Source: Eledone cirrhosa (lineage: Eukaryota). Taken from it: a DNA stretch of 64,000 nucleotides. This document shows positions 11,234 to 41,724 of the stretch, one piece after another. The notes under the pieces were generated by a model. The model had not been told where the DNA came from. It worked only from the letters and a program-made list of their open reading frames with translations, and searched no databases. Every line of letters starts with the position of its first letter. Position 1 is the stretch's first letter. The position numbers and the translations under genes are program-made. The DNA is taken from assembly GCA_964016885.1 (NCBI GenBank), contig OZ024742.1, positions 203,670,001 through 203,734,000 of the forward strand. Direction: 5' to 3'.

Positions 11234-11234
<1 letters not shown>

Positions 11235-11476
11235 TTTTCTTTATTAACCACAAGGGTTCACATACAGTAGACATTAAGAACAGTACAGGACAATACAGGA
11301 CGGTACAAATGGGCATTTCTGCGTGTAAAAAAACAGAGGTTGAAATAAAATAACAAAGAAAAATTCCCCAATAGGGGGGAGACTTCCAAGGGACATTTGT
11401 GGAGAAAGCCCATTAAAAGACCACAGTGGCCCTGACCACCAGGGCAAGTGCCCTCTCCCAGTTTTCCACCTTTAAT

Positions 11477-14400
11477 TTACAGACACATACTCAGAGAAGG
11501 CCCATTCATTCGGGCCATACTTGCTTCTCTCACCCATCTTTCAACAAAATGCTGGGAAGAGAGCACTTCCCTCTCTACCCTGATTTTCCTTTTCAAATGA
11601 AATTTGAAAAAGTTAATCAGGGCATCACCGAAGAGGTAAGTGCTCGTCTTCAGCCCTTTCAAACGTGTCCACCATACTATCTCTTTCGCAATGGCCACCA
11701 GACAGATAAAAACTGCCTGCCCTTCCAGGCTAAAGGAAGGGGGCGGGGCAATCCTCACGATGGACTCAGCTGATAGCTGGATCCGTCCTACACGTGACAG
11801 CAGGTGTTCGACTTAAACCCACAAGTCAACAATGCTCGGACACTGGACGAGTGCGTGCAGGACTGTTTCGTCGCCCTGCGCGCATCTCGGACATGCCCGG
11901 TTGACGGCACCTCCATGCCTGTAGAGTTTATCCCGAACTGGCAAAGCTCCTCGGTAGCACTGCCAGGCCAGGGATTTCTGGAAGTTGTCCATAGGCCCCG
12001 GCCCGAAAGTCCTTCCGAAGAGATTGGCTAGTTGATTTTCGTCGACGCCTAGAGTTTCTCCAAGTACGTCGTCGCTCTTCCCCTCCACTAATCCCCTATA
12101 GAACGCCAAGGTGGAGTTTCCACCGATCACATTGCCCGATTGGTCGAGGGCTGTGAGCGCCTGAAGACATTCCAGTCTCCAAGCGCTCCCTCTCGGTCTT
12201 CGCTTGACCCAGGACTGCAGCTCCGTCAAGGAGACGAGCTGGGGAAAAACGTGTCTTGCAAACGGCGACCACACCTGATCACCGTCGAGGAAGAGGTGGA
12301 GATGTCGTAGCCTGAGCGCGTGTCTGCGCATCATCAGCCACGGCATGCCCAGCCCTCCACGTAGCGGGTGTTGACAGCAGATGGACCGCCTGACCATCGG
12401 AGCGCGTCCCTTCCACAAGAAGCGAAAGAGCAAACGCTCCAGCGCAGTCAGGCGGGGCTTAGGACAAGGTACGACGGTCAGGCGGTAGTAGATGACGGAT
12501 GCGATGTACGCATTCGCCACCTCCGCTCGACCTTTCAGGGATAGCTTCCTCTCGGCCCATTTCTGGGTGAGAGAAGCCACCCTGCTCGTCACCTCGTCCC
12601 AGTTTTTGTCCGTCTGGAGGTCTGGACCGAACCAGACCCCTAGCAATTTAACCGGTCCGTCCGTCCAGCGCCCGACGACGCTGTTGGACGGCATGGACCT
12701 GCCTCTCCAGGTGCCGAGCTTCAGGCCCACTGACTTTTCCTGGTTGATCATTGCTCCTGTCAGCGCTTCGTATTCTCTTAGTGTAGTGCCGATCGCCTCG
12801 ATGTGTTTGGCGTTCGACACCACTACGGTGACATCGTCGGCATATGCTGACACGGATCTTCCGCATTCTAGTTCGCGCGGGACCCCCCTCAACGTCTCCA
12901 GTTTGTTCAGTAATGGCTCGAGAGTCAATACGTACAATAGGGACGAGAGGGGACATCCTTGGCGGACCGAGCGCATGATGTTGAACGGTTCCGAAAGGTG
13001 ACCGTTCACTCTCACTACAGAGCAGATGTCGCTGTGCATGGCAGCGATCCAGCCTTTGAAGACGGGCCCAAAGCCAGTCGCCCTCAGGACTGCCGCTAGG
13101 TAACGATGGTCGACCCTATCGAAGGCTTTCGACTGATCTAAATTGATCAAAGACCCACCCGTGCCAGGTTCCCTAGCTACCCTCTCTACGATGTATCGCA
13201 TGAGGTGGAGGTTGTCGTGGATGGATCTGTCGGGAATGGCGCATGTCTGTGCCTCTCCCACCAGACCACCAACGACAAGCGCCAACCTCTTTGCTAGCAC
13301 CTTGGCCAAAATCTTGAACTCTGTGTTTAGCAGAGTTATGGGCCTAAAATTATCTATGTTATCCCCCTTGTTCGGATCCTTTCTCAGCAGCGCCACCGCT
13401 CCTCGGCTCACAGAGCTGGGAATTCTCCCGTTCTGTTGCCAGTTGCAGTAGACGTCCGCCAAGAGGCCTCCGAACAAGTTTGGCATTTGTACGTAAAGTT
13501 CATAGGGCAGACCATCCAAACCAGGCGATTTACCCCTTGTGCAACTAGTCATTGCATCCCGTACTTCAGCGGTTGTTATCGGCTTTTCGCAACACTCCGC
13601 CTCAGTGGCCGAAAGCCGCGGCAGTCCGTCGAGGTAGACACTAAAGTCCATCCCTCGATCCGGCCCGCCACTGCCCCCGAACAGTTGAGCGAAGTGTCGC
13701 TGAAAAGCTTCACACATTTGCCCGGGATCGAGTAGCATGCGCCCGTCGTGGTCCACCAAAGACCGGATCGTGGCTTTGTTGCCACGACGCGCCTCCGCCA
13801 CTCGGGCCCATTGAACGGCTTTCGTCCCCTCGTGTCTGAGAGCACGCACCCTAGCTCTGACAACGCAGCCTTCGTGCTTTGCATTGAAGAATTGGTCAAG
13901 GGCCAATTTCGCCGCAAGTACGTCGGTCGCGATGCCTTTGCTAAGCGCCTCATCTAATTTTCTAACTAATTCTCCCTCTGCTCTATTTTTCTCTATTGCT
14001 AAAGTCTTACTAAACCTAATGGACTCTATTCTAATTGCTCTTTTCAGAGCAAACCACCACTTGTTGTTGACGATGGCCCCCGTCAAAGCCCGCTTAACTA
14101 GTTCGCTAATCCGGTCTCTGTAGGCCTTGCGCGCTGGTAAGGACGCGTTTAGCTTCCAGTAGCCGGGTCCTCGTCTATGAAGCCTATCTAAATCAAGCAC
14201 ACAGATCACGAATTTGTGGTCCGTGTAGCTGACTATCTTGAATTGTGGACAGCCTATGCTAGACCTATCTATTTCCCTACAAAATACTCTATCTAGATAT
14301 GATCTGGATGACCCTATGCGATTTGTCCAAGTCCACATTGGTACATTCGGGAAATCCATTCGGTACCTGTCAGACAGTTCAAAACGTCTGAGCAGGTTGG

Positions 14401-14896
14401 TGAGACTCTTGCACCCTCCTTCCCTATCCACTAATCCCACACAATCCCAGCGTGCATCTAAGATCCCGTTCCAGTCGCCCACTAACACTAAAGAGCGGGA
14501 CGTTCCAAGAAAGGTCTCCAGACGCCGGAAGAAATCAGGCCGCCCTGCTCCTGTCGGGACATAGACGGCCACTAACCTGAAAGCTTGCCCGTCTCCGCTG
14601 GTCACGTCCAGCACCACCAACTTACCTTCTGGGTCCAGGAAGATGGCCCGTATGGCAAAACCCAAACCTCTCCGAAAAAGCACAGCAACTCCTCCCCCCG
14701 ATCCCGGACGGCTGGGAGATGCGTACACATCGTAGCCGCCGAAGATCGGTGCGAAAGCCTGTGCTTCGGAGATTCTGGTCTCGCTGATGGCCACTACATC
14801 TATGTTTAGTGACCTGAGGTCGTTGAGCAGGTGGCCCTTCTTCCATGACGACCCCAAGCCACGCGCATTTATGCTGCCTATTCTGAGTGAGGTCAT
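11477..14896 (-). pseudogene. LINE ORF2 (AP endonuclease + reverse transcriptase + C-terminal Cys/His motif), one in-frame stop
   Basis: SINARGL, ISET, VGDWN, SYLDR, TDH (APE); KSPGLDG, NFRPITLLN, DQSKAFDRV, VRQGCPLS, YADD (RT); CPRC..ETVLHALVQC. ORF 11477..11758 is in the same frame after the TAA at 11813-11815. Confidence 0.93.
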
Positions 14897-14930
14897 GTTG
14901 AAAAGGAGTGGAAAAGATGGGAAAGACCAC

Positions 14931-16886
14931 TTACCTTACTTCTCGTAGGGGAAGGACGGTTTCTCCATCCTTTTCACTGCTTGTGGCCTCCTCAGGAAGG
15001 ATGTCCTTATAAATCCTCCTGGAGAGTGCTTGTCGGAAGTCTCCGATGTCTTTGGGGAATTTTTGTTTTAGTGTCATGTACGTTTTCTGTGTGATGCGAG
15101 TGATTTGTATGTGTGGAGGTGGTGTGAATTTTGGGGTTGTTGTGTAGTCTTTTTCTGTGATGCTGGTGTTGTGTTGGATGTAGTGTAATAATTGCTTGTT
15201 GTTCAAATTTAATGCTGTGTAGTGTGTATCGTTTTGGTTGTTTTGTTTTGTTTGCGTTTGTTGTGGGTTTGTTTCTGTTTCGCATTTTGGTGACTTTTGT
15301 GGTATAGGTGATGGTGGTGCTGGGGTTAATGTTGGTGATGGTGTTGGTGTTTGGGTTGATGGGGTTGGTGATGCTGGTGTGGATGGTGGCATATCTGTCC
15401 TAACTTTTTTGTTTCTTAATTTATTTGTTTCCCTCTGTATTTTGTTTTTGGAGGGGGAAGGAAGAACATTTTTTTTGGGGGGTTTCTTTTTTTTTTCCGG
15501 ATATCGTTTCCCACTCCTCGTCGTCACAATCTGTCTCCAGTTGTGATAGGCCGGGGAGTGGAAAATTCTCCACAGCCGTTAGTTTTGGTTGTGGTGTGGT
15601 GGATGGTGTAGGCGCTGGTGCTAGTTCTGAAGCGTTGGGTGGTGGTGGTGTTGGTTTTGCTGGTGGTGGTAGTGGTGTTGGTTTTGCTACTGTTGCTGGG
15701 GTTGTTGCTGTTATAGTTGCTTCTATTGTTGCTGCTACAGTTGTTGCTGCCATCTCTGCTACTGGTGGTGTTGATGGTTGTGTCACTGGGGTGGGTAGGA
15801 GAGGTGGCCTCAACCTTTTAGCCTGAGGGCAGAAAGTCCTTAGGTGGGTTCCTTCACCACAAACGACACACCTAGGTCTTCTGCCCTCGACAATTACCGT
15901 GAGGTGGCTGCCGTCAGTGAGGTCTATTACCTCTGGGATCTCCTCAATGCTTTTTTGGTCCGCTTGGATCAGGAGCTCCATCCCAGAACCGGACCAGTTC
16001 TCCTGCTTTTCTTTTGCTATTGCTATTATTTTCGTGTTGGCCTCGATGCCGGCGAGGACAGCCGCTATTAGCCAGGGAATTTCGATGGCCGGTGGAACGT
16101 GGGTCACCCTGATCTTTACGAGTCTCTGGCCACAATAGCTTGGGACGAGTGTGAAGTCGTCACTTCTTAATGGGGCCATGGAGTGTTCTCTAGCCTCCTC
16201 TGGTGTTTCAAAGAACACGTCTACGGTTCCATACTTTTGCCCACGTCTGATGTGGGTTTTTCTTGCCCACACATGTCCCAAAGCTTTTTGGATTTGGGAC
16301 TCGGATACCCGTTCCACTCGGCGCGATTTTACATTTATTGTTCTATACGACACGGTGCATAGGCGCCGATGCTCCATTTTATTAGGTGGGGGGGTGAGGC
16401 TGAACCTGTACCCATCTTTCTTTACCATTTGTTTGGCATTTTCTAAATCTTCCTGAGTTACCGTAAATGCTTCGAACTGTTTTGCTACTCTGGCGAAACT
16501 GAGGGGGGGGGGGTTTATAATGTCATTGTTGTTGTTGTTGCTATCGTTAATATTAATTTTAGTTTCAGTTGTGGTGGTGGTGACGTCAGTCGTCTTTGGT
16601 GGGGAAGAGTCCATTTTGCTTGATTTCATTTCGACATCACGAGTTAATTTATTTTTTTCTTCTTTTGTTTCTGTTGTCGCGGTGGTGGTGGGGTGGTCGT
16701 GGTGGTGGTGGCGGCTTTAACACCTGCAGTCATTGGTAATGGCGGGAAATGAAAGTCTGCCTGAGACAAATTCAAAATATTGCTACTGCTTAAATTTTTA
16801 GTGTTGGCAAACGTAGTAATATTTATAATGGTGGTGTCGGTGTGAGGAGTTAGTTTGTGAGAAAGGAGTGATTCTGAGTCAGCCTT
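14931..16886 (-). pseudogene. LINE ORF1 (gag-like, single CCHC zinc knuckle), frameshifted
   Basis: EGRRPRCVVCGEGTHLRTFC in ORF 15421..16629. The C-terminus continues in 14931..15527 after a shift in an A run at ~15490. An upstream frame from 16886 (KLTPHTDTT) matches the N-termini of copies 2 and 3. Confidence 0.8.
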
Positions 16887-17100
16887 GATTTTTCAAAGAA
16901 AAATTTTTGTTTGATAATTATAAAAGTTTAAATTTTGGGCACAACGCCCCAATCTTTTTCGGTGTCCTTTTCAGATAACAATGTATGTGCACTTATATAC
17001 AGCTAACAATAAAAAGTTTCCATGAATGGCAATTTTAAACAACTGAAAATAACAAACCTTTACGGAGCTCACGATGATACGATTTACTACGTAGGTGGCC

Positions 17101-17154
<54 letters not shown>
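17101..17154. repeat. (AAT)18 microsatellite between two element 5' ends
   Basis: Perfect run separating the 5' end of LINE 1 from the truncated 5' end of the RLE element. Confidence 0.95.
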
Positions 17155-17159
<5 letters not shown>

Positions 17160-18640
17160 CAAATATCTAGGTGTTTGTGAAGGAGACGGAATCAAGCACT
17201 CGACAATGAGGGAAAGGATAAGGAAGGAATGTTACCGCAGAGTCAGAGCAATCTTAAGAACGGAATTGAATGCAAGGAATAGGATCGATGCCATAAACAC
17301 GCTTGCCATACCAGTAGTAACCTACAGTTACAATGTCATCAACTGGTCAAGCACAGAGATCCGTAGGCTCGATACAAAAATCCGAAAATTCTTAACCATG
17401 CACAGAATGCATCACCCTAAGGCAGACATAGATAGAATATATCTCCCTAGGAAAGAAGGAGGACGTGGGTTAATCCAGTTAGACATTGCGTTGAAAACTG
17501 CAACAATTGGATTATCCACATATCTAAGGGAATCACATGATTGGGTGATCAAACTCGTTTTGAAACACGAAAGCACCAAAAGATCATATTCCATTACAAA
17601 AGATGCACAAAGATACAGTAATGGACTACAAATTTCAGAAGTCCCATTTACTGCTGAAATGGAAAACACAGAAAAAGCAAAGCAGGTAAAAGTAACTGCA
17701 AAGAAAGAACTGCTACAGAAACTGGCTAAGAAATGGCAAGAAAAGCCTCTGTATGGAAAATACCCAGAGCGAGCTAACAATCCTGATGTTGACAAAACTT
17801 TAACCCATCAGTGGTTGGCATCCTCTGGACTGAAATCGGAGACTGAAGGACTGATTATCTCCGCACAAGATCAGTGTCTGCCAACAAAAAATTACCAAGC
17901 CAACATAATAAAAAATGGGTGCAGCCCATTATGCCGTGTATGCAAAAAACAACCAGAGACCATTGACCATATAATTTCAATGTGCAGTCCTATAGCTCCA
18001 ACCGAATACCTAAACAGGCATGACAGAGCTGCACAATACATACATTGGATAATGTGTAAGCATTTTGACCTGCCCCATCAAAAGAATTGGTGGGAGCATC
18101 AACCACCTCCCATACTTGAAAAAGATCACATCTCAATCTTGTGGAACTTTAGCATCCAAACAGACCGAAAAATAGATGCAAATAGACCTGATATAATATT
18201 GAAGGACTTTCAAAGGAGGGTATGCCTGCTAATTGATATGTCTGTTCCAATAGACAAGAATGTATCTATAAAAACATTTGAAAAATTGAGCAAGTATAAG
18301 GACCTGGAGATAGAAATTGGAAAAATGTGGAAATTGAGAACTAAAACAATACCAGTGGTTGTAGGCGCTCTGGGAATGATACCTAAGGGGTCTAACGACT
18401 ACTTATCGCAAATCCCAGGAAACCCGCGTATAGGAGAAATACAAAAGATAGTACTAATGGGAACTGCCCATATACTAAGGAAGATCCTGTCAATATAAGT
18501 ACATCACAAGTCTAAACACTAAGGATGCATGTGTGAATATGTGTGTTCTTTCTTGAACATGGCGGACCTTGTTGTCTCTTGAGGTCACTGGTTGTGACTT
18601 GGTGATAACTCGTATAAACATAAAGCAAGATAAATGCAAA
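17155..18640 (+). mobile_element. 5'-truncated R4/Dong-like non-LTR retrotransposon (RLE class)
   Basis: Open frame to 18498 with YKYLG, RIYLPRKEGGRGL, CRVC..ETIDHIISMC, RHD, RPD..LIDMSVP, K..KY (PD-(D/E)xK endonuclease). The 3' UTR is followed by (TAA)n. Confidence 0.9.
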
Positions 18641-18661
18641 TAATAATAGTAATAATAATTA

Positions 18662-19447
18662 TATCAGGACAAGATCAGTGTCTGCCAACAAAAAATTACC
18701 AAGCCAACATAATGAAAAATGGATGCAGCCCATTATGCCGTGTATGTAAAAAACAACCAGAGACCATTGACCATATAATTTCAATGTGCAGTCCTATAGC
18801 TCCAACCGAATACCTAAACAGGCATGACAGAGCTGCACAATACATACATTGGATAATGTGTAAGCATTTTGACCTGCTTCATCAAAAGAATTGGTGGGAG
18901 CATCAACCACCTCCCATACTTGAAAAAGATCACATCTCAATCTTGTGGAACTTTAACATCCAAACAGACCGAAAAATAGATGCAAATAGACCTGATATAA
19001 TACTGAAGGACTTTAAAAAGAGGGTATGCCTGCTAATTGATATGTCCGTTCCAATAGACAAGAATGTATCTATAAAAACATTTGAAAAATTGAGCAAGTA
19101 TAAGAACCTGGAGATAGAAATTGGAAAAATGTGGAAATTGAGAACTAAAACAATACCAGTGGTTGTAGACGCTCTAGGAATGATACCTAAGGGGTCTAAT
19201 GATTACTTATCGCAAATCCCAGGAAACCCGCGTATAGGAGAAATACAAAAGATAGTACTAATGGGAACTGCCCATATACTAAGGAAGATTCTGTCAATAT
19301 AAGTACTTCACAAGTCTAAACACCTAAAGATGCATGTGTGAATATGTATGTTCTTTCTTGAACATGGCGGACCTTGTTGTCTCTTGAGGTCACTGGTTGT
19401 GACTTGGTGATAACTCATCTGAACATAAAGCAAGATAAATGCAGCTG
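18662..19447 (+). mobile_element. Second, shorter 5'-truncated copy of the same R4/Dong-like element
   Basis: Near-identical to ~17867-18640 (QDQCLPT...ILSI* plus 3' UTR), with (TAA)n on both sides. Confidence 0.9.
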
Positions 19448-19746
19448 TAATAATAATAATAATAATAATGATTTCATTTATTGGCCACAGGGGCCGACAT
19501 ATAGATGACAATACAAAAGACTGGGACAGTGGGGTTTTACAGAAAAATCGAGTAAACAATATGAATAACAAAAACAAAGTAACAATAACAAAGTAATAAT
19601 AAAGTAACAAGAAAATTACAAGAAAAAATTCCCCAATAAGGGGGATCACCACCTAGGGTTCGCTCAGGTACCCCACCAGTCCTGAACGACCCGACGCTTC
19701 GAGAGCACCCTGGAAGGGCACCCCTCTCTTCTTCAAATTTACCTAC

Positions 19747-22700
19747 CTACAGCCGCATGACCAGAGGAGGCCCACTCACACGGGCCATTCTTGCCACATT
19801 CACCCACCTTTCAGCAAATGTACTGGGGGGCAGCACTTCTCTCGCCACCCTCACCTTCCTTTCCAAGTGAAACTTGAAAAAGTTGATGAGGGATTGGCCG
19901 AAGAGAAAAGTGTCTGTCTTCAGTCCTTTCAACCTCGTCCACCATACAATCTCTTTCGCTACTGTAACCAGACAGAGGAAAATTTCCTGCCCTTCCTGGC
20001 CAAAAGAAGGCGGCGGGTCGATCTGCACTATGGATTCGGCCGATAGTCGGATCCGTTCTACACGCGACAACAGCTGTTCAACATAACTCCTCAAGTCAGT
20101 AATGCACGGACATTGGACAAGTGCGTGCAGAACGGTTTCGTCGCTCTGCGCGCATCTCGGGCAGGTCAGTCTGACAGCACTTCCGTGCCTGTAGAGTTTA
20201 TCTCGAACCGGCAGTGCCCCCCGGTAGCACTGCCAAGCGAGGGATTTTTGGAAATTATCCATCGTCCCCGGCTCGAAAGTCCTCCGGTACAGACTGGTCA
20301 GTTCGACTTCGTTGACTCCCAGAGCCTCTCCGAGTGCGTCGTCACGCTTGCCCACCACTAATCCTCTATAGAACTCGAGAGTGGAAGTTCCACTGACCGC
20401 ATTGCCCGCATGGTAGAGGGAAGTGAGTGCCTGGCAACATTCCAGATGCCAGTCACCCAGTCTCGGTCTCTTCTTGACCCAGGACTGCAACTCAGTCAAA
20501 GAAACGAGCTGCGGAAAGGCCCGTCTGACAAACGGCGACCACACCTGTTCACCGTTTAAGCAAAATATCTGGAGATTCCGCAGCCTCAGCGCGTGCCTGC
20601 GCATCATTAGCCACGTCATGCCCAGCCCTCCACGTAGAGGGTGCTGGCAGCAGATGGACCGCCTCACCAGCGGAACCTGACCCCTCCACAAGAATTTGAA
20701 GAGGAGCCGCTCCAAGATGGCGAGGCGCGAACGGGGGCAAGGGACGACAGTCAGACGGTAGTAGATGACGGACGCGATGTACGCGTTCGCCACCTCCGCC
20801 CGACCTTTCAGTGATAGCTTCATCCCAGCCCATTTCTGGGTGAGACTGACTTCCCTGCCCGTCACCTCGTCCCAATTCTTATCCACCTGGGGGTCTGGCC
20901 CGAACCAAACCCCTAGCAACTTTACCGGTCCGTCCGTCCAGCGCCTAACGACGCTGTTGGACGGCATGGACTTGCCTCTCCAGGTGCCGAGTTGCAAGCC
21001 CACTGACTTTTCCGGTTTAAGTTTTGCTCCCGTCAACCTTTCATATTCCTCCAATAAGTTGCCGGCCACCTCGATTTCTGAGGTGTCCAACACCATCACG
21101 GTGATGTCGTCCGCATAAGCCGACACAGCCTTTCTGCGTCCCGGTTCGAGCGGGATGCCCTGCAACAGCTCCAGCTTCCGTAGTAAAGGCTCGAGAGTCA
21201 ATACGTACAGAAGGGGGAGGGGAGAGGGCACCCTTGATGGACCGATCGGGAGACCTGAAACGGTTCCGAGAGGTGGCCATTAATTTTGACCATCGAGCAG
21301 GTGCCGCTATGCATTGCAGCGATCCAGGTTCTGAAGACGGGGCCGAAGCCAGCCGCCTTGAGGACAGCCTCCAGGTACCGATGGTCGACCCTATCGAATC
21401 CTTTCGATTGATCTAAATTGATCAGAGTCCCACCGAAGCCAGATTTACACTCTACCCTCTCTATGATGTATCGCATTAGGTGGAGGTTGTCGTGTATGGA
21501 CCTGGTTGGGATTGCGCAAGTTTGCGCCTCCCCAACCAAATCCCCGACGACAAGCGCCAACCTCTTCGCTAACACCCTGGCCAAAATCTTAAACTCTGTG
21601 TTGAGCAGAGTTATGGGCCTGAAATTGTCTAATGTGTCCCTCTTGTTCTCGTCTTTCCTTATCAGCGTCACTACTGGGAATACTCCCGTTTTGCTGCCAG
21701 TTGCAGTAGAGCGCTTCGAGTAGATTGGAGAACAAGTCTAGCATATTGACGTAAAGCTCGTAGGGCAGACCATCCAAACCGGGTGACTTGTGCCTCATGC
21801 AGCCTACCAGGGCATCCTGAATCTCGGCTGAAGTAATTGGCCTTTCGCAGCGCCCAGCGTCAGCCGTCGAGAGTTGCGGCAAGCCATCGAGGTAGGGACT
21901 GAAGTCCGCCACCATCTCAGACCCGCCACTTCTCCCGAACAACTGAGCAAAATGTTGGCGAAAGGCCTCACACATCCTCTTGGAATTGCTCAGCTCGAGC
22001 CGGTCTCGGTCCGTCAAAGACCGAATCGTGGTTTTATTACCACGCTGCGCCTCTGCCACGCGGGCCCATCGAACAGCTTTGGTTCCCTCGTTTCTCAGAG
22101 CACGCGCCTTAGCTCTGACAATGCAACCTTCGTGTTTCGCATTGAAGAAATGGTCTAATGCCATTCTCGCCGCTAGCACATCAGTTGCAATGCCACTAGC
22201 AATAGCCTCGTCTAACTTATCTACCAACTCTCCCTCCTTTCTATTTTTCTCTAACGCTACTTCTTTCCTAAACTCTATCGATATTACTCTAATCTCTCTT
22301 TTGAGAGCCCCCCACCATCTATTGTTGACGACTCCCCCTGTCAACTTTTTCTTACTAAATTGTTGACCTGGTCCCTGTAAGCCTTACGTGCCGGATATGA
22401 CATGTTTAGCTTCCAGTAACCAGGTCCTAACCTATGCGTCTTATGTAGGTCGACCATACAGATCACAAGCTTGTGATCTGAATAGGCGACCGTTTCAAAA
22501 CGTGGACAGCTTACACTATTTCTGTCTATTTTCCTAATGAAGATCCTGTCTATATACGATCTAGATTACCCTATGCAGTTAGCCCAGGTCCACACTGGCG
22601 CATTAGGGAGACCTAGTCGGTAGCTGTCAGACAGTTGGAACTGGCTGATCAGGTTCTTGAGGCTTTTGCACCCCCCGCTCCTATCGGATACTCCCACACA

Positions 22701-23153
22701 GTCCCAGCGTGCGTCTAAGGTGCCGTTTCAGTCCCCCGCTAACAGTAAAGGGCGAGACGTACCCAGAAAGGCTTCCAGGCGTCTAAAGAAGTCCGGCCGT
22801 CTTTCCCCAGTAGGAGTATAGACGGCCACCAGTCTAAAGTCACCACCTTGATTATTGTTCACGTCCAGGACCACCAACTTCGCGTCCGGGTCCTGGAAGA
22901 TCGACCTTACCTCGAGATCCAGGCCTTTCCTAAACAGCACTGCCACCCCGCCTCACATTCCCGACTGGCTAACAGATGCAAAGATCTGATAGTCGTCGAA
23001 AATGGGGGCTAGTGCACGCGTGTCGGAAATCCTGGTCTCGCTGACTGCAATTACATCCATTTCTAGAGACCTGAGGTCGTTGAGCAGGTGACCCTGCTTC
23101 CAGGACGATCCCAGGCCTCGAACATTTAAACATCCTACTCTTAATACGGCCAT
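19747..23153 (-). pseudogene. LINE ORF2 (APE-RT), several frameshifts/stops
   Basis: Five collinear ORF fragments align to ORF2 of copy 1. Confidence 0.9.
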
Positions 23154-23184
23154 GTTGGCAGGTTAAACAGAGAGAGAGGAAGAT

Positions 23185-25132
23185 TTACTTACCTTCCGGG
23201 CTCTTGTGAAGGTCGGGTTGTTCGACCTCCATAGTTAGTGGGGTTTCTTTTGGGAACCCCTTTAAAAGTCTTGAAGTGGGTTTTACGTTCGGGGTTCCCA
23301 CGTCCCGAGGAAAGCTGTCTCGTATTTCTTTGAATATGTCGAGCGACATTTGCACCAGAACCAAATCTTCCGGCACGCGAAATGTGCTCGATTTAAACAT
23401 TTCCCCCTCTTTTTGTATATTTTCACTTCGTGCTACGAGGGCCATCAGTTCCTTGTTGGCCCTCCTGACGAGCACGAAGTTTTGTATGTTTTGTTGGTGT
23501 GATTTTATTTGTTTGCGTGGCTGTGGTGGTGATGGTTTTGGTGGTGTTGTTTCGGTTGTATCTGTGTTTGTTGTGAGTGCGGTGTTTGGTTTCAGATGTT
23601 TGTGTGTATATTAGTTCTTGCGTCTGTTTAGGTTGTTTGCGTTTGGGGGATTCTGGTGATGGTGATGGTGGTGTTGATGTTGGTGTTATTGGAGAGATGT
23701 TTGCGTGGGTGGTGTCTGCGTTTTTTATTGTGGGTGCTTTTGTGCTTTGTTGAGTTTTTTTTTTTTCTTTTTGTGTTTCCTTTTTTGTATTTTGGGGGAT
23801 TTGGGATTTCCCTCATTTTCACTACTGGTAGATGAGGGATCTGTGTCTGTAAGTGTGCCTGTATGTATGCTTATGGTTTTATTGGTGTGTGTATTTGGGG
23901 GGGGGATTTGACAGCTTTCCTCGTTTCCTCCCTGGGTGGTCAATGTTGGTGGTGGTCTTTCTATTGGTGTTGTTGTTGGTGGTTTTGCCGGTGTTGGTGT
24001 TGGTTGTGGTCCTCGCTCCGGCGACGGCAGCAGTGGAGCCTTTCGACCCCTTGCCTCTTTCAGCAGTTGAGGGCAGAAGGCTCGCAAATGGGTTTTTTCC
24101 CCACAAACAAAACACTGCGGCCTTTTGCCTTCGGTCATAATGTGAATGACCGTCCCATTCTGAAGGCGGATGTGGTGCGGGATTGTCTTCAAATTCTCGG
24201 GCCTGATCTGGAGAAGGATCTCAAGGTCAACCCCGGACCAGTCCTCTCTGGCAGTTCTAGTCACTTCTATAGGGACTTTATCCGTCCCCTCCACAATCAC
24301 ATATCCCAGAAGCCACCACATGTCAAGTTCTGGTGGGATTCTGGGAATGCAGAGACGAGCCGTTCTTTTTCCCATGTGGGAGGGGTACATTATGACCTTG
24401 ATGGTTTTGCAAGGAGTCATGGCGTTTCATCGCGAGGGCTTCTGACTTGAACAACACCGAAATGGTGCCGTACTGTCTGCCCCTCTCTATGTAGTGGGTG
24501 TCTTCTCTGATGCACCTCAGCGCGACTTCGACATCATCTTGTGGGATTAAAGCTGCCCCTTTGGTTTGTGCTGAGATGCATCTATAATGCACCGTTTTGC
24601 GCTCCACTGCCTCAATAGCTCCTACCGGGACAGTTAAGTTGGCCCAGGTTTGCTCTTGCCTGGGCCAACTTTTCATCTTTGTTTGAGAGGTCCATGTTGA
24701 AGCATGGCCTCTTTTTTGCTGCTGCCGCAGCGAAAGTGTTCTTCGTGTTTTCGTTGGGGGTTTTGTTGTCGTTGTTCTTCTTGGTGTTGTTGTTAGCACT
24801 GTCGCTGTTGTTGTCTTTGTTGCCACCGTTGTTCTCGGTGCAGTTGGTATTGTTGCTGTTGGTGTTGTCGCTGTTTGTTTTCATGTTAGTGGTATTGATA
24901 TTGTTGTTGTATTTGTTATTTTTTTTTTTGTTATCTGTATTTCGTTGTCGCTGTTACTGTCATTTTTTTCAAAATTAGAATTCTTATTGGTATCATTGGT
25001 GTCTTTGTTTACCTTGTTTGTGGCGGTGTTTGTGTTATCAATGTGTGTTAATTTCGCTGTAGCGCTCCTCTCAACTTCTACGTCGCTGTCGCACCACAGC
25101 CGACATATTGCTGGGGGGCGTGGCTCAGCCAT
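23185..25132 (-). pseudogene. LINE ORF1 with CCHC knuckle, frameshifted
   Basis: MAEPRPP..., Asn/Thr-rich tract, ERGRQYGTI, EGKRPQCFVCGEKTHLRAFC, ending SPEGK*. Confidence 0.8.
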
Positions 25133-25339
25133 GTTTTTTTTTTCTTCGTAAATTTTTTAACATGTAAAAAAAAGTTCAAATATTTGGGCCAAAAGGCCCA
25201 AATATTATACTTTCCCCTTCACGGGGCAAAGTCTAAGGGCTTATATCCCTTACACAACAAGAAATATTTAACAACAAATAATTTTAACAGGCAAATAAAG
25301 CGACTTACTGTGAGCGAGCAAAATACGTCCGCTTAGACC

Positions 25340-25384
<45 letters not shown>
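25340..25384. repeat. (AAT)15 microsatellite between LINE copies 2 and 3
   Basis: Perfect triplet run. Confidence 0.95.
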
Positions 25385-25386
<2 letters not shown>

Positions 25387-25677
25387 TTTCTTTATTGGTC
25401 ACAAGGGCTGACATCAAGAAAAACATTACAGACGGTACAGGACGGTACGATGTGGGTTTTGTGCGTGTAAATATTTTTATTATTTATATATGAAAAGAAA
25501 AAAAAGACATAGAAACATATATATATATAAACAATAAAAATGAAAATCGAAACAATGAAAAATTCCCCAATAGGGGGGAAACCTCCGAGGGTTACTCGTG
25601 GCGAAAACCACACAAAAGACCACGGCCACCCTGACCACCAGGGCAAGCGCCCTCTCTCAATTTTTCCATCTCTCAAA

Positions 25678-28600
25678 CTACAGACGTATATTCAAAGTGT
25701 TCACTCGGACCATTCTCGCTACATTCACCCACCTTTCAACAAACTGGCTCTCCACCCTGATTTTCCTCTTCAAGTGAAACTTGAAACAGTTAATTAGGGA
25801 TTCGCCGAAGAGGAATGTGTCTGTCTTTAACCCTTTCAACCTTGTCCACCACACAATCTCTTTCGCCATGGCCACCAGGCAGATGAAAACCGCCTACCCT
25901 TCCTCCTCGAAGGAAGACGGCGAGACCATCTGCACAATGGACTCAGTCGACAACCGGATCAGTCCTACACGCGACAGCAACTGTTCGACATAGCTCCACA
26001 AGTCAGCAATGCTCGGGCACTGAACGAGTGCGTGCACGACGGTTTCGTCGCTCTGCGCGCATCTCGAACAGGCTCGGCTGACGGCACTTTCGTGCCTGTA
26101 GAGTTTATCTCGAACCGGCGGCGCTCCCCGGTAGCACTGCGAGGCCAGGGATTTTGGGAAGTTATCCATAGGCCCCGGGCTGAAAGTTCTCCGGAAGAGA
26201 GCAAACAGCTGATCTTCTTCGATGCCGAGGATCTCTCCGAGAATGTCGTCGCTCTTCCCCTCCACTAGTCCTCTATAGAACGCCGAGGTGGATGTTCCAC
26301 CGATACTGGTGCCCAGCTGGGAGAGGGCAGTGAGCGCCTGGAGACATTCCAGCTTCCAAGCGCTATCCCTCAGTCTTTTTCTGACCCAGGACTGCAGCTC
26401 CGTCAAGGAGGCGAGCTGTGGGAAAACGTGCCTGGCGAACGGCGACCACACCTGTTCACCATCAAGGAAGCACCAGAGATGTAGCAGCCTCAGCGCATGT
26501 TTGCGCATCATCAGCCATGGCATTCCCAGTCCTCCACGCAACGGGTGTTGACAGCAGATGGATCGTCTGACCATGGGAGCGCGTCCCTTCCACAAAAAGC
26601 GGAAGAGGAGGCGCTCCAGTTTGGTGAGAGTTGGGCTGGAGCAAGGGACGACGGTGAGGCGGTAGCCGATGACGGATGCGATGTACGCATTCGCCACCTC
26701 CGCCCGGCCTTTCAGGGACAGCTTCCTCTCAGCCCATTTCTGGGTGAGGGAGGCCATCCTGCTCGTCACCTCGTTCCAGTTTTTCTCCATCTAGAGGTCC
26801 GGCCCTGAGCAATTTAACCGGTCCGTCCGTCCAACGCCCCACGACGCTGTCGGACGGCATGGACTTGCCTCTCCAGGTGCCGAGCTGCAAGCCCACCGAC
26901 TTTTCCTGGTTTATCTTTGCTCCTGTCACCGCTTCGTATTCCTTGAGAGCGGTGCCGAGCATCTGGACGTGTCTTGTGCTCGACACCACCACGGTGACGT
27001 CGTCAGCGGAAGCCGACTCGGATTTCCCGCATCCTAGTTCGCGTGAGACGCCCCTCATAGCCCCCAGTTTGTGCAGTAACGGCTCGAGAGCAAATACGTA
27101 CAAGAGGGACGAGAGGGGACAACCCTGGCGGACTGAGCGCATGATGCTGAACGGCTGCGACAGGTGACCGTTCACCCTCACAACTGAGCAGATGTCGCTG
27201 TACATTGCTGCGATCCAACCCCTGCGATTCAACCCCTGAAAACGGGCCCGAAACCGGCTGCTTCGAGGACCGCCGCCAGGTACCGATGGTCGACCCTATC
27301 GAATGCTTTGGATTGATCCAAGTTGATCAGTACCCCACCCGTGCCAGGTTCCTTAACCACCCTCTCTATGATGTATCGCATGAGGTGGAGGTTGTCGTGT
27401 ATGGATCTGTCCGGAATGGCGCATGTCTGCGCCTCTCCCACCAGACACTTGACGACAAGCGCCAACCTCGTTGCTAACACCTTGGCCAAAATCTTGAACT
27501 CTGCGTTTAGCAGTGTTATGGGCCTGAAATTATCGATAACATCCCCCTTGTTCGGGTTTTTTCTCAGCAGCCCACTGCTCCCCGGCTCACAAAACTGGGA
27601 ATGCTCCCGTTCTGCTGCCAGTTGCAGTAGACGTTTGCCAAGAGGTCACCGAACAAGTCTGGCATAAATGCATAAAGCTCGTAGGGCAGACCATCCAAAC
27701 CTGGCGATTTACCCCTTGTGCAGTTAGCCATCGCTTCCCGTATTTCACCGGCTGTTATTGGCTTTTCGCAACACTGTGCTGCGGTCGTCGAGAGCCGTGG
27801 CAGTCCGTCGAAGTATGCACTGAAGTACATGCCCCGATCCGGGCCGCCGCCGCTCCCGAACAGTTCAGCAAAGTGCTGCTGAAAAGCTTCACACATCCGC
27901 TCGGGTTCGAGCATCACGCACCTGTTTTGGTCAGACAAAGACCGAATTGTGGATTTGTTGCCACGTCGCGCCTCTGCTACCCGGGCCCATTGGACGGCTT
28001 TTGTCCCCTCGTGTTTCAGAGCACGCGCTCTAGCTCTGACAACGCAGCCAATCTCGCCGCAAGCACGTCGGTTGCGATGCCTGTCCTAAACGCATCTTCT
28101 AGCTTTCTGACTAGCTCTCCCTCTACTCTATTTTCCCCTATCACTACTCCTTTGCTAAACCTAATCGACTCTACTTTAATTGCCCTTTTCAGGGCGAACC
28201 ACCACCTGTTGTTGACGATCGCTCCCGTCAACGCCCGCTTACCTAATACGCTAATCCGGTCTCTGTAGGCTTTGCGCGCCGGGAAAGACGCGTTGAGCTT
28301 CCAGTAAACAGGCCCTTGTCTATGAAGTCTGTCTATGTCGATCTCACAGATCACAAATTTGTGGTCTGTGTAGTCGACTATTTTAAATTGTGGACAACTT
28401 ATACTAGCCTTATCTAGTTCTCTGCAGAATACCCTATCGAGATACGATCTGGATGACCCGATGCGGTTTGTCCATGTCCACATTGGCACATTCGGGTGAT
28501 CCAGTCGAAACCTGTCAGACAATTCAAAACGTCTGAGCAGATTGGGGGAGGCTCTTGCATCCTCCTCCCCTATCCACTAGCCCCACACGATCCCAGCGTG

Positions 28601-29042
28601 CATCCAATATACCGTTCCAGTCACCCACCAACACTAAAGAGCGGGACGTTCCAAGAAAGGTCTCTAGACGTCTGAAGAAATCTGGCCGTCCTGCCCCTGT
28701 TGGGGCGTAGACGGCTACTAGCCTGAAAGCATTGCCATCGCTGCCGGTCACGCCCAGCACCACCGACTTACTTTCTGGGTCTAGGAAGATGGCCCGTATC
28801 GCGAGATCCAAGCCTCTCCGAAAAAGGACGGCGACCCCTCCCCCCGATCCTGGACGGCTGGGAGATGTGTATACATCGTAGCCGCCGAAGATCGGTGCGA
28901 AGGCTTGTGCTTCGGAGATTCTGGTTTCACTGATGGCCACCACATCTATGTTTAGTGACCTGAGGTCGTTGAGCAGGTGACCCTGCTTCCAAGATGACCC
29001 CAGGCCAGGCGCATTTATACTGACTATTCTGAGTACGGCCAT
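25678..29042 (-). pseudogene. LINE ORF2 (APE-RT), multiple frameshifts and short deletions
   Basis: Collinear fragments closely similar to copy 1 ORF2. YADD is mutated to SADD. Confidence 0.9.
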
Positions 29043-29074
29043 GTTGGATGAGAAACGGGGCAAGTGAGAAAGGG

Positions 29075-31198
29075 TCACTTACCTTGTTCGTGTGGTGAAG
29101 GGACAGTAGAACCGTCCCTTTCGCTGGTCATGGGTGTTTCCAAGAGGATGTCAGTGTATATCCTCTTGGTAACCGACCCTCTGAAGTCTCCAACTGCGTT
29201 GGGAAATTTTTGTTTTAAAGGTTTGTACTGTTCTATTGAGATTTCGATGATGCTTATGTTTGTCGGGAGAGTTCTTGGTGTCGGTGGGGTGTAGTAGTTT
29301 TTTTCTGTGATGTCTGTGTGCTGCTTTATATATTGTATGAGTTCTTTTTCTGCGATGTTTATGGCTGTGTACTTTTTGGGGGGAGGGGTGATTTTGTTGC
29401 TGTTTTCTTCTTGTTGCTGTTTGGTGTGTGTGTCTTGTCGTGTTTGCACTGTTGGTGTTTTTGGTGATGCTGGTGGTGGTGTGGTTGTTGTTGTCAGTGG
29501 TGCTTGTGGTGGTGATGGTGGTGATGTTGCTGCAAGTTTCCTTGCTGCCTTTACCCCTCTTTGTATGCCTTCGCTTTTGGAGAGTGAATCTAAGGGTTTT
29601 TTTCTTTTTTCTTTTTTGTGGCAGATCGTTTGCCACTTTACTCCCGCCTCTAACTCCATGTCGGATTCTGTGGCATCTGGGAGGGGTATGTGCTCCACGG
29701 CTGTTGGTGGTGGTAGTGGAGCCCTCTTCGGCAATTTTGTTGCTGGTGTAGCTACTTCAAATGTAGCTATTGGTGTTTCCGCCACTGATGATGCTGCTTT
29801 AGTTGTCCGTGGCCTTGGTACGGGTGCTACAGAAGTTGCCCTGCTACTCACGGTGGAAGGGCTTCGTTTGTTGCCTGCCCTGCTCTTGGTAGCAGCGGAC
29901 CAGGTATTGGAAGGAGAGGGGCCTTCTTCGCTGTCTTCAGCGGGCAAAAGGCCCTGAGGTGACCCTTCGACCCACAGAGATAACATTTTGGCCGACTTCC
30001 TTCTACACTTATAGGGAGTTGGAGTCCTTTCTCGATGTCTATGATACCGGGGTAGCGTCGATACATTCCTGGTCAGTTTGCATAAGCATTTGCATGCCTA
30101 TACCTGACCAGTTCTCTCTCCCTATTTTTTCTACTTGCAGCATGGTCGTCCTGTTCTCGATTCCAGCGAGGACAGACGCGGCCAGCCAAGGCATGGGCAC
30201 GTCGGGTGGGACCTGGGTCACTTTGACCCTCACAATTTTCTGCCCGCAGTAGGAGGGCACCAAGACTATCTCCTCACACTTTAGGGTTTCCAAAGAGTGA
30301 GACTTTGCTTCCTGGGGGTGGCGAAAAGTACGTCTACTGTGGCGTACTTTCTGCCTCGGGTGATGTGGGTTCTGCGTGCCCAGACGCATCCCAAGGCCTT
30401 TTGGATTTGAGCCTCCGTGGCTCTCTCCACTCGATGTGAGATTTTGCTTACGGTGCGGTAAGTCACCGTCCGTAGCTGCTGGTCCTTGAAAAAATCGGGT
30501 GGAGGTTTCAGGGAAACTCTATTTGCGCTTCTTGTCACCATGGCCCTTGCGACTGCCATCTCCTCCTCTGTGACTAACACTGTCTCGATATTTCGGGCGA
30601 CACCTGCAAAAGAAATGGTCCCTTTTTCAGCAGCACCACTATTGCTGCCGCTACTGGTCTTACTGGTGGTGCTGAGATCGCTATTACAGGTATCGGTGTC
30701 ATTGTTGTTGTTTTCGTTGGTACAGTTGTTGGTGTTGTTGTTGTTTTCGTTGATACTGTTGCTGTTGTTACTGTTATTGTGACTGTTGTTATTATTGTTG
30801 TTTTTGTTGATATTGTTCCTACTATTATTATTGTTGTGGCTGTTGTTATTGTCATTGTTATTGTCGTTCTCGACCTGACCGCTGTTATTTTTGTTATTGT
30901 CGTTCTCGACTTTACCGCTGTTATTTTTGTTATTGTCGTTCTCGACTTTACCGCTGTTATTTTTGTTGTTGCTGTTGTTATTGATGGTGTTGATGTTGGT
31001 GTTGTTGTTGGTGTTATTGTTGGTGTTGTTTGTGTTAGAAATATTTGTTAATTTTAAATCTGTAACAATCTTCTTTTCCTTTGTAATATTTTCGTTTATA
31101 TTTACCTCCGCTGGAACGCTGTCTTGTTGACATGCTGAGAAAGTCTCCTTCTCTCTGTGTTGTCTGACAGCGCTCTCTCCCTTTCTTGTGTTATCCAT
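29075..31198 (-). pseudogene. LINE ORF1 with CCHC knuckle and Asn-rich N-terminus, frameshifted
   Basis: SFAGVAR, QIQKALGCVWARRTHITRGRKY, LVPSYCGQ and EGSRPKCYLC match copy 1 ORF1. Ends EQGK*. Confidence 0.82.
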
Positions 31199-31377
31199 GT
31201 TGAAATTTTTCAAAAAAATATTTTTACACAAATACGAATACGACACCCCGTAAAGGGGTGCCGTATTATTTACTAGTGAAACCCTGTATTAGGTGGGTCA
31301 CTTCTAAAGTTTTATCAAATTTAAAACTTAAATAAAAGGTTTAGAACGGTTGAAAATTTCTAATTTTCTTTGGCAAT

Positions 31378-31408
<31 letters not shown>

Positions 31409-31628: not shown

Positions 31629-31720
<92 letters not shown>

Positions 31721-32380
31721 ATCGATCTTTTACCACCTTTATGTAAGTTCTTTCACTTACCTTCAGATCTTATGTCATTTCACCTATATAAGTCTACATA
31801 TATACATGCTATTTGGATACAGTTTGTCCTGACACTTCTTTATCCTTCAGTTATTGTATTATTGCTCCTAATGAAAGGTTTTCATTGTTAATTTAATAGA
31901 GCTGACTTTAGGTTCAAACAGTGGCTATTTTAGCATTCTGATTGACCTGTGCATTTGTCAGATATCATTAATAATGTTACGTATTAATCAAAATGTTAAT
32001 GGATGTGCTTCTGCTTCAAACATTAAATATCAGTAGAGCTGCTTCATTTTAGACCAAGCGCCCTGCTACTTCTAGCAATACCGTTGACCTGCCTGTATCC
32101 TTATATAATATTATAACGTCCTTACCATGTGACTTTTAGATCTATAACGTCCTTACCATGTGTCTTTTGGATCCATGGTGGCTAACTATTTCTAATGCGT
32201 TTAGTAAGACACATTTCTGGTTGGTTTTACTTAATGGTGCCAGTTGTTTTCATTTCGTATTTGGCACCAGTTCTCTTACTCTCTGAAACAGCTGTATAGA
32301 AATAGAGTCGGAATTTTACCATTTTTATGTAAGTACGTAAGTTCTTTTAATTGCCTTCTTTGGCAATATATATATATATA

Positions 32381-32512: not shown

Positions 32513-32944
32513 TATATATGTATACATATATATCAAAAGTATATATTGAGTTAAAAACTCACAATAGCTGAAGGAAAACAATTTTTCCGGGCCTTATAAT
32601 ATATTCCATTTATGTTAGGCTGTTTAACAATGGGTGCAACTGGTACTTCGGTTTGGTAAACAATTATGCAATAAATTCATTAAAGCACTCAATGTGATGC
32701 AAATCATCCATCATTGGTGTGGTATCCATTGGTTGGTGCAGGAACAGAGTTAAGTATTCATTAAAACAACAACAGAAGGCCGGACAGGAAAATTTACCTT
32801 AGAATTTTAATTCCGCGAAATCACTATACATATTTCGATATATACATATATGTGTGTGTAAGTGGATAGTAAGAATCGATATTTTACTACCTTTATCTAA
32901 GTTCATTCGCTTAACTTCAGATCTTCACCTATATAAGTTTACAT

Positions 32945-33232
32945 CAGTCATGGGCAACCTGCGGCCCGCGAAGCTTTCTAAATGACTCGCCTAAGTCACC
33001 TAAGTGAAATCTTTCTGATTTTTTTACTCCAACTTTTCAGTCGCAATTTATCTTTCTATCATTCTTACGGTCGAGGAAAACAACGTGTACGAATTCTGAG
33101 GAAACAAATCAAAATAACCTGAGTTACCGCCTTTTTTTATGTGGACACGAATATAAATTAGTGCTTGCGGCCCGCCTGATGATGAACCAAATCTCATGTG
33201 GCCCGCTTCTCGAAAAGGGTTGCCCAGGCCTG
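32945..33232. mobile_element. hAT-type MITE with 8-bp TSD
   Basis: TIR cagtcatgggcaacc / ggttgcccaggcctg, subterminal ggcccgc motifs, flanks gtttacat / gtcgacat. Confidence 0.8.
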
Positions 33233-33587
33233 GTCGACATATATACATGGTATTTGGATACATTTTGTCTTAATCTTAAAATACTGTATTACTGCTTCTA
33301 ATGAAATATTTAAAATGTTAAATTAGTAGAGCTGACTTTAGGTTCTAACAGTAGCTACTTTTAGCATTCTGGTTGACCTGTGTATTTAACAGGTCAACCA
33401 TATATTTATATATACACACATAACTCCTGGTGCCGTAAAGCACTGCAGTGACATACGACGCGTCTTAGGCGTGTACTGTTATATAGAGAGAGGAAGAGTG
33501 GAGTTAATGGATGAGAAAGAGTGATAGATAGATAAATAGTTCTATAGACTGTTAGACAGGTAAATATATACACGCGCACACACACAT

Positions 33588-41344: not shown

Positions 41345-41665
41345 TATATTTGTGTGTGCGTGTGAATGCGTACGTCTACCTCAATCTACTACCCTACCAC
41401 AACACCTTACTAATCAATGTAAAGTCTTCACACAACACATCTCTGCCACCACCACAACCACAACTTATATGAAACTGTCTGACTGAAACATTGGTGGTCT
41501 GCTCAATCAGTGTTCACATCATATTTACGGAATATTGGCAACAGCATTGATAAATGCAAACATAACACCAAATGGCTCTGTTTAACTGCATTGAGCTATA
41601 CCTTTTACTGTCATTTCTATAATACGAAGAGGGTGTTTGACTCAAACACGCTCCAGTATTCTAAT

Positions 41666-41721
<56 letters not shown>

Positions 41722-41724
<3 letters not shown>

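Follow-up and report, generated by a model that had tools for sequence, protein, structure and literature searches.

An open question is how LINEs obtain far more protein from ORF1 than from ORF2 when a single RNA encodes both. In the accessible parts of the reports cited here, four systems come closest to the arrangement that we describe. The Arabidopsis Ty1/copia element EVD carries a conserved splice donor from which a gag-only mRNA is made, and U1 also guards its full-length RNA (PMC5580714). Splicing of L1 has been described as harmful to the element, and the spliced human L1 RNAs that are copied into the genome as SpIREs use 5′ UTR donors and are described as dead ends (PMC5860796). SART1 couples its two ORFs by a UAAUG stop-start (PMC3894237), and Kibi and Koshi are Tx1-clade non-LTR retrotransposons that target the microsatellites (TC)n and (TTC)n, respectively (PMC4494074). 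Judged from its sequence, the motif studied here is a splice-donor sequence that lies on the stop codon of ORF1 and is conserved in a LINE lineage of the L1/Tx1 group.

Elements in the window and position of the donor motif

The window is the whole 64,000-nucleotide stretch of Eledone cirrhosa DNA that was analysed (contig OZ024742.1, positions 203,670,001 to 203,734,000). It contains three LINEs of the L1/Tx1 group lying head-to-tail on the minus strand, with the following features.

11234..17100, minus strand: LINE copy 1, family F1, full length, with (ATT)n before it and an (ATT)n tail (11233-11184) after it
14931..16629, minus strand: ORF1 of copy 1, with a frameshift near 15500 (frames 16716-15421 and 15578-14931)
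11477..14896, minus strand: ORF2 of copy 1, with a premature stop at 11815-11813
14929..14937, minus strand: AAG/GTAAGT donor or U1-type site of copy 1, GT at 14934, 38 nt before the ORF2 ATG at 14896
14897..14928, minus strand: pyrimidine spacer of copy 1
19470..25339, minus strand: decayed LINE copy 2 of family F2, its insertion site lying behind copy 3's (ATT)n tail
23187..23195, minus strand: AAG/GTAAGT donor of copy 2, GT at 23192, 39 nt before the ORF2 ATG at 23153
23186-23154, minus strand: spacer of copy 2
25385..31380, minus strand: decayed LINE copy 3 of family F3, with an approximately placed 5′ end adjoining an (AG)n run
29077..29085, minus strand: AAG/GTAAGT donor of copy 3, GT at 29082, 40 nt before the ORF2 ATG at 29042
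29076-29043, minus strand: spacer of copy 3

Many copies of family F1 have an ORF1 that is open for more than 1350 nt, and intact ones encode an ORF2 protein of 1139 aa. The ORF2 stop lies at 19749-19747 in copy 2 and at 25680-25678 in copy 3 (both minus strand). Two sets of traits agree with assignment to the L1/Tx1 group: ORF2 has an N-terminal APE domain (PF03372), an RT domain (PF00078), and a C-terminal zf-RVT domain (PF13966), and the elements have a separate upstream ORF1, no LTRs, an AATAAA poly(A) signal, and (ATT)n tails. The ORF1 product of ~640-700 aa includes a Cys/His knuckle-like motif and matches no Pfam family above the cut-off. All nine recognised 5′ ends among 20 fetched loci abut (ATT)n, a target preference of the Tx1 type. 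Copy 3 in the window lies behind (AG)n instead. We presume the narrower label Tx1 to be appropriate; the RT tree, made by a quick method, held no named reference elements, Tx1 included.

The earlier note had proposed that a perfect 5′ splice site overlaps the ORF1 stop in all three LINEs, and the GT positions and the distances of 38, 39, and 40 nt proved correct. All three spacers are pyrimidine-rich and end in CAAC, as was also claimed. The stop codon TAA of copy 1 sits within the motif. The differing codon phases (AGG TAA in F1, GGT AAG followed by TAA or TGA in F2 and F3) are traits of the families rather than private indels, with copy 2 ending in GGT AAG TAA and copy 3 in GGT AAG TGA. The statement that the 9-mer is kept holds for GGTAAGT, which is invariant across subfamilies, but not for positions -3 and -2, which vary (AAG, ACG, GAG, or CAG). 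In most families the site matches the donor consensus, as commonly given, at eight of nine positions, and it is the best or joint-best site of each element. Chance would account for 0.09 exact 9-mers across the sense strands of the three LINEs and for ~0.002 GGTAAGT 7-mers per 30-nt window. The whole window contains six exact 9-mers (five minus, one plus), and the three besides the LINE donors are at 14628 within ORF2 of copy 1, at 31763 outside the LINEs, and at +58846.

Conservation among subfamilies and relatives

Because the three window copies share ancestry, the real test of the motif is a comparison across greater divergence. When the boundary was compared across further subfamilies, as the earlier note had suggested, GGTAAGT was present in all eight sampled in the same genome (F1, F1b, F2, F2b, F2c, F3, F3b, and F3c). 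A script count on fetched loci gave the donor motif in 122 of 129 distinct junctions, which are not independent, since the loci were chosen by similarity, and which leave out one false start. In a more distant relative called M, whose ORF2 is 42% identical, AAG/GTAAGT occurs in 15 of 15 distinct junction sequences. There the ORF1 stop lies just upstream of the donor, which makes a third codon phase, and the spacer is 13 nt long, giving a range over lineages of 13-41 nt (37-41 nt in the elements of the window). Identity at fourfold-degenerate sites is 0.57 between F1 and F2b (n = 411) and 0.29 between F1 and M (n = 225). The latter value is near saturation, and the 9-mer is still kept in M. This retention over three codon phases, various spacers, and near-saturated silent sites supports selection at the RNA level on a 5′ splice site or U1 site, as had been suggested.

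It is highly improbable that the motif persists through shared ancestry or chance and serves no function. Such a reading could draw on the small number of independent deep lineages with the motif, which is two (F and M), and on the occurrence of the same 9-mer by codon chance in ORF2 (14628) and also outside the LINEs. However, 32 of 191 fourfold sites are identical across F1, F2b, and M1, such that seven together would be expected at ~4e-6, a rough figure that treats sites as independent.

The motif is absent from the ORF1 end of lineage N and from 34 distant elements. N is sister to M, so the donor is dispensable in the wider clade; N has instead an overlapping, in-frame TAATG stop-start at the ORF1/ORF2 boundary. 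One distant element (L205) has TAAGT, pyrimidines, and CAAC-ATG, without the G. Searches of the same genome with divergent queries recovered the same lineages only, and a search of viral contigs gave no relative.

Acceptors, genomic copies, and a hybrid family

Three explanations for the donor had been offered. In the first, a mini-intron of 52-59 nt is removed, joining ORF1 to ORF2 in frame. The acceptors proposed are indeed in frame in all three window copies (52, 58, and 59 nt), but in copies 2 and 3 the in-frame AG is not the first, and 15-25 nt separate it from the end of the pyrimidine tract. ORF1 is not open through the donor in all relatives: it stops upstream of the donor in M, which leaves a fusion intron unsupported. 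Furthermore, given the cis preference of L1, a spliced RNA that makes ORF2 should be preferentially copied, yet among 50 genomic variants that lack GT after the exon end, none is joined to the proposed acceptors (against 1112, 976, and 3187 reference matches). The mini-intron is thus largely refuted by the genomic copies, and we consider it very unlikely. A pyrimidine tract plus CAG directly precedes the ATG in F2b and F3b, and not in F1, F1b, F2, or F3.

In the second explanation, splicing removes ORF2 to yield an ORF1-only mRNA. We tentatively favour this proposal. The 3′ UTR of copy 1 has an acceptor-like stretch ending at 11319, a site restricted to F1 and F1b. Two features bear on what follows.

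11319..11332, minus strand: possible 3′ splice site within the 3′ UTR, present in F1 and F1b only
14977..14979, minus strand: CAG in F1 ORF1, 42 nt before the donor; the F1-type sequence of F1b starts directly after it

Within this genome the 3′ UTR CAG is confined to F1 and F1b; the corresponding triplet in F3 is CAC, and the last ~170 nt of F2b contain no AG. Acceptor candidates within ORF2, at -616 and roughly -250 relative to the stop, are codon-constrained and were set aside. From its sequence, a complete donor/acceptor set exists in M: a GTRAGT donor on the ORF2 stop is followed by a pyrimidine tract and TAG acceptor ~240-250 nt into the 3′ UTR (six of six diverse variants shown). In N, a perfect donor lies ~40 nt after the ORF2 stop, and a long pyrimidine tract with TAG follows.

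Retrocopies of spliced RNA were sought with patterns that miss acceptors followed by GT or by T in second place. Within that scope, none of the 50 variant donor sites has a canonical join to an acceptor in ORF2 or the 3′ UTR, none of 12 variant 3′ UTR acceptor sites is joined to an ORF1 end (versus 7908 intact matches), and no ORF1-only retrocopy was found among these sites of the same genome. Four loci were set aside as ordinary deletions (L302, L310, L312, and L333); L333 joins the donor position to ORF2 with no AG and with a near-repeat at both ends, and it shows, together with L312, that deletions unrelated to splicing can also start at such a position. In contigs of unspecified kind, which say nothing on splicing, the 15 joints inspected of 1081 include none at the copy 1 donor. 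The same holds for a locus with both F2b and F1 donors (L137), where contigs of the same type, equally uninformative on splicing, have no joint, and no loose end at either donor, among the 9 of 10 inspected.

A different kind of trace is provided by F1b, an abundant hybrid family joined exactly at the donor and just after a CAG. Its ORF1 is 88-91% identical to the parent F3c up to the exact donor position, whereas in ORF2 it shares 97-98% identity with F1 and 85% with F3c. Of 88 matches, 15 loci were sampled; 13 of these are the parent family and carry a donor at the join position. The junction arose once and shows a 2-nt overlap (AG), and its acceptor side lacks a pyrimidine tract. The family likely originated from rare splicing that joined adjacent tandem copies.

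The third explanation, that U1 binding suppresses premature polyadenylation, can be put more broadly: U1 would dock at the motif without productive splicing, protecting the full-length RNA from premature cleavage or aiding its production, with splicing as in F1b being accidental. The invariance of the donor beside an acceptor that is not conserved would fit, as would the lack of spliced retrocopies among the sites searched. U1 at the EVD donor is also described, in the accessible part of that report, as repressing premature termination (PMC5580714). However, poly(A) hexamers are few in ORF2 (0-2 per element), most being upstream in ORF1, and full sets of donor and acceptor are present in the 3′ UTRs of M and N. 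On balance, we regard docking alone as possible but rather doubtful.

The motif may well act as a regulated donor: splicing from it would delete either the start of ORF2 or ORF2 as a whole and so produce a message for ORF1 alone. U1 would bind the donor during transcription, and splicing to any downstream acceptor would leave ORF1 whole, with at most a short new tail, and lose ORF2. Because any downstream acceptor would suffice, this would explain a conserved donor without a conserved acceptor.

A predicted long-range helix and comparison with known systems

Pairing is predicted between the spacer plus donor and the initial ~50 nt of the 3′ UTR.

14945-14906, minus strand: predicted 5′ helix arm of copy 1
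11433..11471, minus strand: purine-rich 3′ UTR start, predicted partner in copy 1 (-42.4 kcal/mol)
19701..19748, minus strand: 3′ UTR arm of copy 2, predicted to pair with the spacer and donor region (-43.6 kcal/mol)
25626..25679, minus strand: 3′ UTR arm of copy 3, predicted to pair with the spacer and donor (-48.6 kcal/mol)

When each whole element was scanned (564-577 windows each), the best duplex partner was the ORF2 stop and 3′ UTR start in all three window copies, with z values between -3.3 and -4.4 relative to either kind of shuffle. Six of seven subfamily representatives have the same best partner, and partners pair better within a lineage than across the divide between F1/F3 and F2. 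The helix appears in two of three global folds, including the global MFE of an F1 copy. It was not found in the F2c representative, which carries a deletion at this place, or in M (0 of 4). Such pairing offers an explanation for the pyrimidine tract other than a mini-intron.

Might the motif be kept for this helix, or for ORF2 termination-reinitiation, with its donor likeness incidental? All of GGTAAGT is predicted to pair with the 3′ UTR in F1, F1b, F3, and F3b, the motif sits on a stop codon, the TAATG of N recalls SART1 (PMC3894237, accessible part), and L205 retains a similar boundary without the G. However, the 7-mer stays constant while the remainder of the helix differs from one lineage to another, part of the 7-mer is unpaired in F2 and F2b, M has no helix that we could find, and the F1b junction lands on the splice position. 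We therefore judge this alternative to be unlikely.

Returning to the regulated donor, the 3′ UTR would be made ~3.5 kb later and would then fold back onto the spacer and donor. ORF2 would thereby be enclosed in a loop and the donor hidden. A masked donor would leave most RNA unspliced, which we propose is the form copied into the genome. We tentatively combine these elements into a splice switch, in which the U1 site yields ORF1-only messages, the helix spanning ORF2 masks it, and new families are founded when adjacent tandem copies exchange their ORF1 and ORF2 modules by splicing. This complete scheme is possible, although speculative. It is testable on thousands of young copies and, if true, would provide a route for module swapping between families.

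A literature search whose scope lay outside most subscription papers, Repbase, and supplements returned no description of the motif, and splicing is not mentioned in PMC3894237, PMC11203168, or PMC13282606. The comparisons below hold for the accessible parts of the reports. Like SART1, these elements have a signal at the ORF1/ORF2 boundary, and lineage N has the in-frame TAATG overlap; the window elements differ in that a donor motif and a spacer of 37-41 nt take the place of an overlap. They share with Kibi and Koshi two ORFs, an APE-RT-zinc finger ORF2, and simple-repeat insertion, but their target is (ATT)n, and the available text on Kibi and Koshi mentions neither an ORF1-end donor nor a 3′ UTR helix (PMC4494074). 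SpIREs set the precedent that spliced LINE RNA can enter the genome. Unlike the SpIRE donors, the donor here is conserved and sits on the ORF1 stop, and the only candidate for a spliced product, F1b, gave rise to an abundant family.

EVD differs in that it belongs to the LTR elements and that its short intron and premature termination have been demonstrated experimentally (PMC5580714), whereas the window elements are non-LTR and have two separate ORFs and a predicted helix in the 3.5-kb range over the donor. A conserved acceptor and a defined short intron, as in EVD, were not found here: the 3′ UTR acceptor is confined to F1 and F1b in these elements and is conserved in M. In both systems, nonetheless, the structural ORF ends with a conserved U1-type donor, a short message (proposed here) would supply excess structural protein, and U1 may protect the full-length RNA. 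If the proposal is true, a selected donor with a masking helix would be the LINE counterpart of the copia gag strategy.

The ORF1-stop donor motif and its conservation

The three LINEs that carry the donor motif lie in the 3.0-Gb genome of an animal host (G000), within a window that also holds other repeats. Relatives were found in a further assembly.

11184 to about 31380, minus strand: three diverged LINEs (copies 1, 2 and 3), head to tail, each ending in AATAAA + (ATT)n
17095-19447, plus strand: 3′ part of another non-LTR element, between copies 1 and 2, with an 800-nt internal duplication (17854-18666 / 18658-19476), between (AAT)n runs; presumably R4/Dong-like (weak zf-RVT hit only)
46309-54589: 49-bp satellite in 169 copies that are 96% alike; its strand skew is extreme, and on the minus strand it yields long open frames that are spurious
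536-1444 (plus) and 41642-42574 (minus): open frames with no Pfam hit, which we take to resemble Penelope-like element fragments
31698-31956 and 32851-33387: a short non-LINE repeat, with AAGGTAAGT at 31763 in one copy
L232-L273 (G001): tandem arrays of relatives at about 42% ORF2 identity, on contigs assigned to a bacterial MAG

The ORF2s of copies 1-3 are 72-79% alike and have APE, RT and zf-RVT domains. We take the elements to be Tx1 from their domain layout and their preference for (ATT)n targets, seen at all 9 of the 5′ ends recognised, and not from a tree with references. Each copy is part of a large young family (F1, F2 and F3, respectively), with F1b, F2b, F2c, F3b and F3c as sister families; a first-look search with the ORF2 start gave 26012 candidates, and ORF2 is intact in many. 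Among family representatives, the start of ORF2 places F1 nearer to F3 (0.88-0.90), but mid-ORF2 it is as near to F2 (0.83 vs 0.81), a shift in identity hinting at further mosaicism within ORF2.

The coordinates, spacings, phases and frames that the earlier note gave for the motif are all correct, and the difference in codon phase between copies is a family trait. GGTAAGT forms the invariant core, and a scripted count (one false start dropped) places GTAAGT in 122 of 129 distinct junctions of the fetched loci; L097, one of the 7 junctions scored as misses, has it at shorter spacing. In the more distant lineage M, with about 42% ORF2 identity to the window LINEs, all 15 distinct junction sequences carry TAAG|GTAAGT, 13 nt upstream of the ATG, with the ORF1 stop immediately upstream of the donor. 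Because the motif is kept in M despite a four-fold-site identity to F1 of 0.29 and a different spacer and phase, it has persisted where silent sites, the length of the spacer and the coding phase have changed, which supports the proposed selection at the RNA level. On these comparisons, we regard it as a real, selected donor-type motif. It is not universal, since lineage N (3 copies), sister to M in a quick tree, has no ORF1 donor and instead shows an in-frame TAATG ORF1/ORF2 stop-start overlap (L264:2030-2045) like that of SART1, and none of 34 distant L1-like elements has the motif within 70 nt of the ORF2 start.

Intron-less copies and the hybrid family F1b

One role suggested in the earlier note was a mini-intron fusing ORF1 to ORF2. 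Were ORF2 made from spliced RNA, the genome should collect copies that lack the intron. Exon ends without a following GT, fetched lineage by lineage, number 1 + 9 of 1112 in F1, 3 + 10 versus 976 intact in the F2 group, and 19 + 8 in the F3 type (3187 matches of a similar pattern). All 50 variants are point changes, F1b-hybrid variants or small deletions, and none is joined to a proposed mini-intron acceptor. For this reason, and because the ORF1 stop of M precedes its donor, we reject the fusion. An F1 copy at L333 (G000:C4:91549486-91552503) has a deletion from the donor position into ORF2 that leaves ORF1 and the remaining ORF2 in one frame, with no AG at its right end.

In the hybrid family F1b, the final 100-300 nt of ORF1 are 88-91% identical to the F3 sister subfamily F3c, and the match runs to precisely the base at which the F3c donor lies. 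Beyond this position lie 43 nt of F1-type sequence, which in F1 follow a CAG (14979-14977), and then the donor, spacer and ORF2 of F1; the F1b ORF2 is 97-98% identical to F1 and 85% to F3c. Since the F1b/F3c type accounts for 78 of the first 100 matches listed (for a pattern with 3187), and just 88 overall continue with G, we extrapolate to roughly 2400 F1b copies. This structure is the expected outcome of splicing a read-through RNA across tandem neighbours, and F1b is likely splice-derived; we estimate, after the fact, that such a coincidence would arise by chance in a few percent of cases. A template switch may instead have made the junction, given that it is a single event in which the two sides overlap by 2 nt and the acceptor is poor.

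A candidate ORF1-only message and a predicted helix over its donor

Splicing to any downstream acceptor would take out the ORF2 start, and the removal of ORF2 to leave an ORF1-only mRNA was another suggested role. Neither the donor side, with its 50 variant exon ends (F1, F2 group and F3 type), nor the F1 acceptor side, with 12 variants versus 7908 intact sites, yielded an ORF1-only retrocopy. As ORF1-only RNA has no ORF2 in cis, this lack counts weakly to moderately against the message. The 3′ UTR acceptor is not conserved among the families of the host genome. We infer a splicing role for the donor, and our preferred reading is a regulated donor for an ORF2-less ORF1 message, which a helix is predicted to mask.

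When each element was scanned with its own pyrimidine spacer plus 12 nt of exon, all three window copies had their best partner in the stretch beginning at the ORF2 stop (-42 to -49 kcal/mol), with z-scores of -3.3 to -4.4 and no more than 1 of 200 shuffles doing as well. The same partner is best in 6 of 7 subfamily representatives, F2c having a deletion at that place. The predicted helix spans the entire donor in F1, F1b, F3 and F3b and only part of it in F2 and F2b; the global MFE fold contains it for F1 and F3b and lacks it for F2b. Pairing of F1/F3-type spacers is stronger with UTRs of the F1/F3 type than with those of the F2 type, and F2 and F2b spacers pair best with F2-type UTRs, though within a lineage the cognate pair does not always rank first. 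A search for the helix in M did not find it.

The L232-L273 contigs are made up of intact Tx1-like LINEs (69 matches) arrayed head to tail over long stretches; they belong to a GTDB genome and are very likely host DNA assigned to a bacterial MAG. Both M and N have a donor at, or about 40 nt past, the ORF2 stop and a strong acceptor deeper in the 3′ UTR, which suggests that splice signals close to stop codons are a recurrent feature of this clade. The donors of the F families, M and N all lie at most about 40 nt from a stop, a distance at which an exon junction would not be expected to trigger NMD. Complete sense-strand intron signals in the 3′ UTRs of N and M (L264:5501-5720; L238, L251, L255, L258) are present in all copies seen, and their retention is unusual for an RNA-copied element. 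At L267, tandem M-type copies show the same internal deletion twice, with element position about 263 running straight into position 3554.

Comparison with known systems

No description of the motif was found in the literature searched. SpIREs are spliced LINE copies but are described as dead ends (PMC5860796). Our analysis points to a real, selected donor-type motif, a helix predicted to mask it and one hybrid family that probably arose by splicing. The closest working model is the gag-only mRNA of EVD/copia, in which a single donor is used for splicing and also for U1 protection (PMC5580714). By analogy, splicing and the suggested U1 protection from premature polyadenylation need not be mutually exclusive for the LINE donor. 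Because the window LINE is a non-LTR element without a fixed intron, it is not a member of the EVD/copia system.
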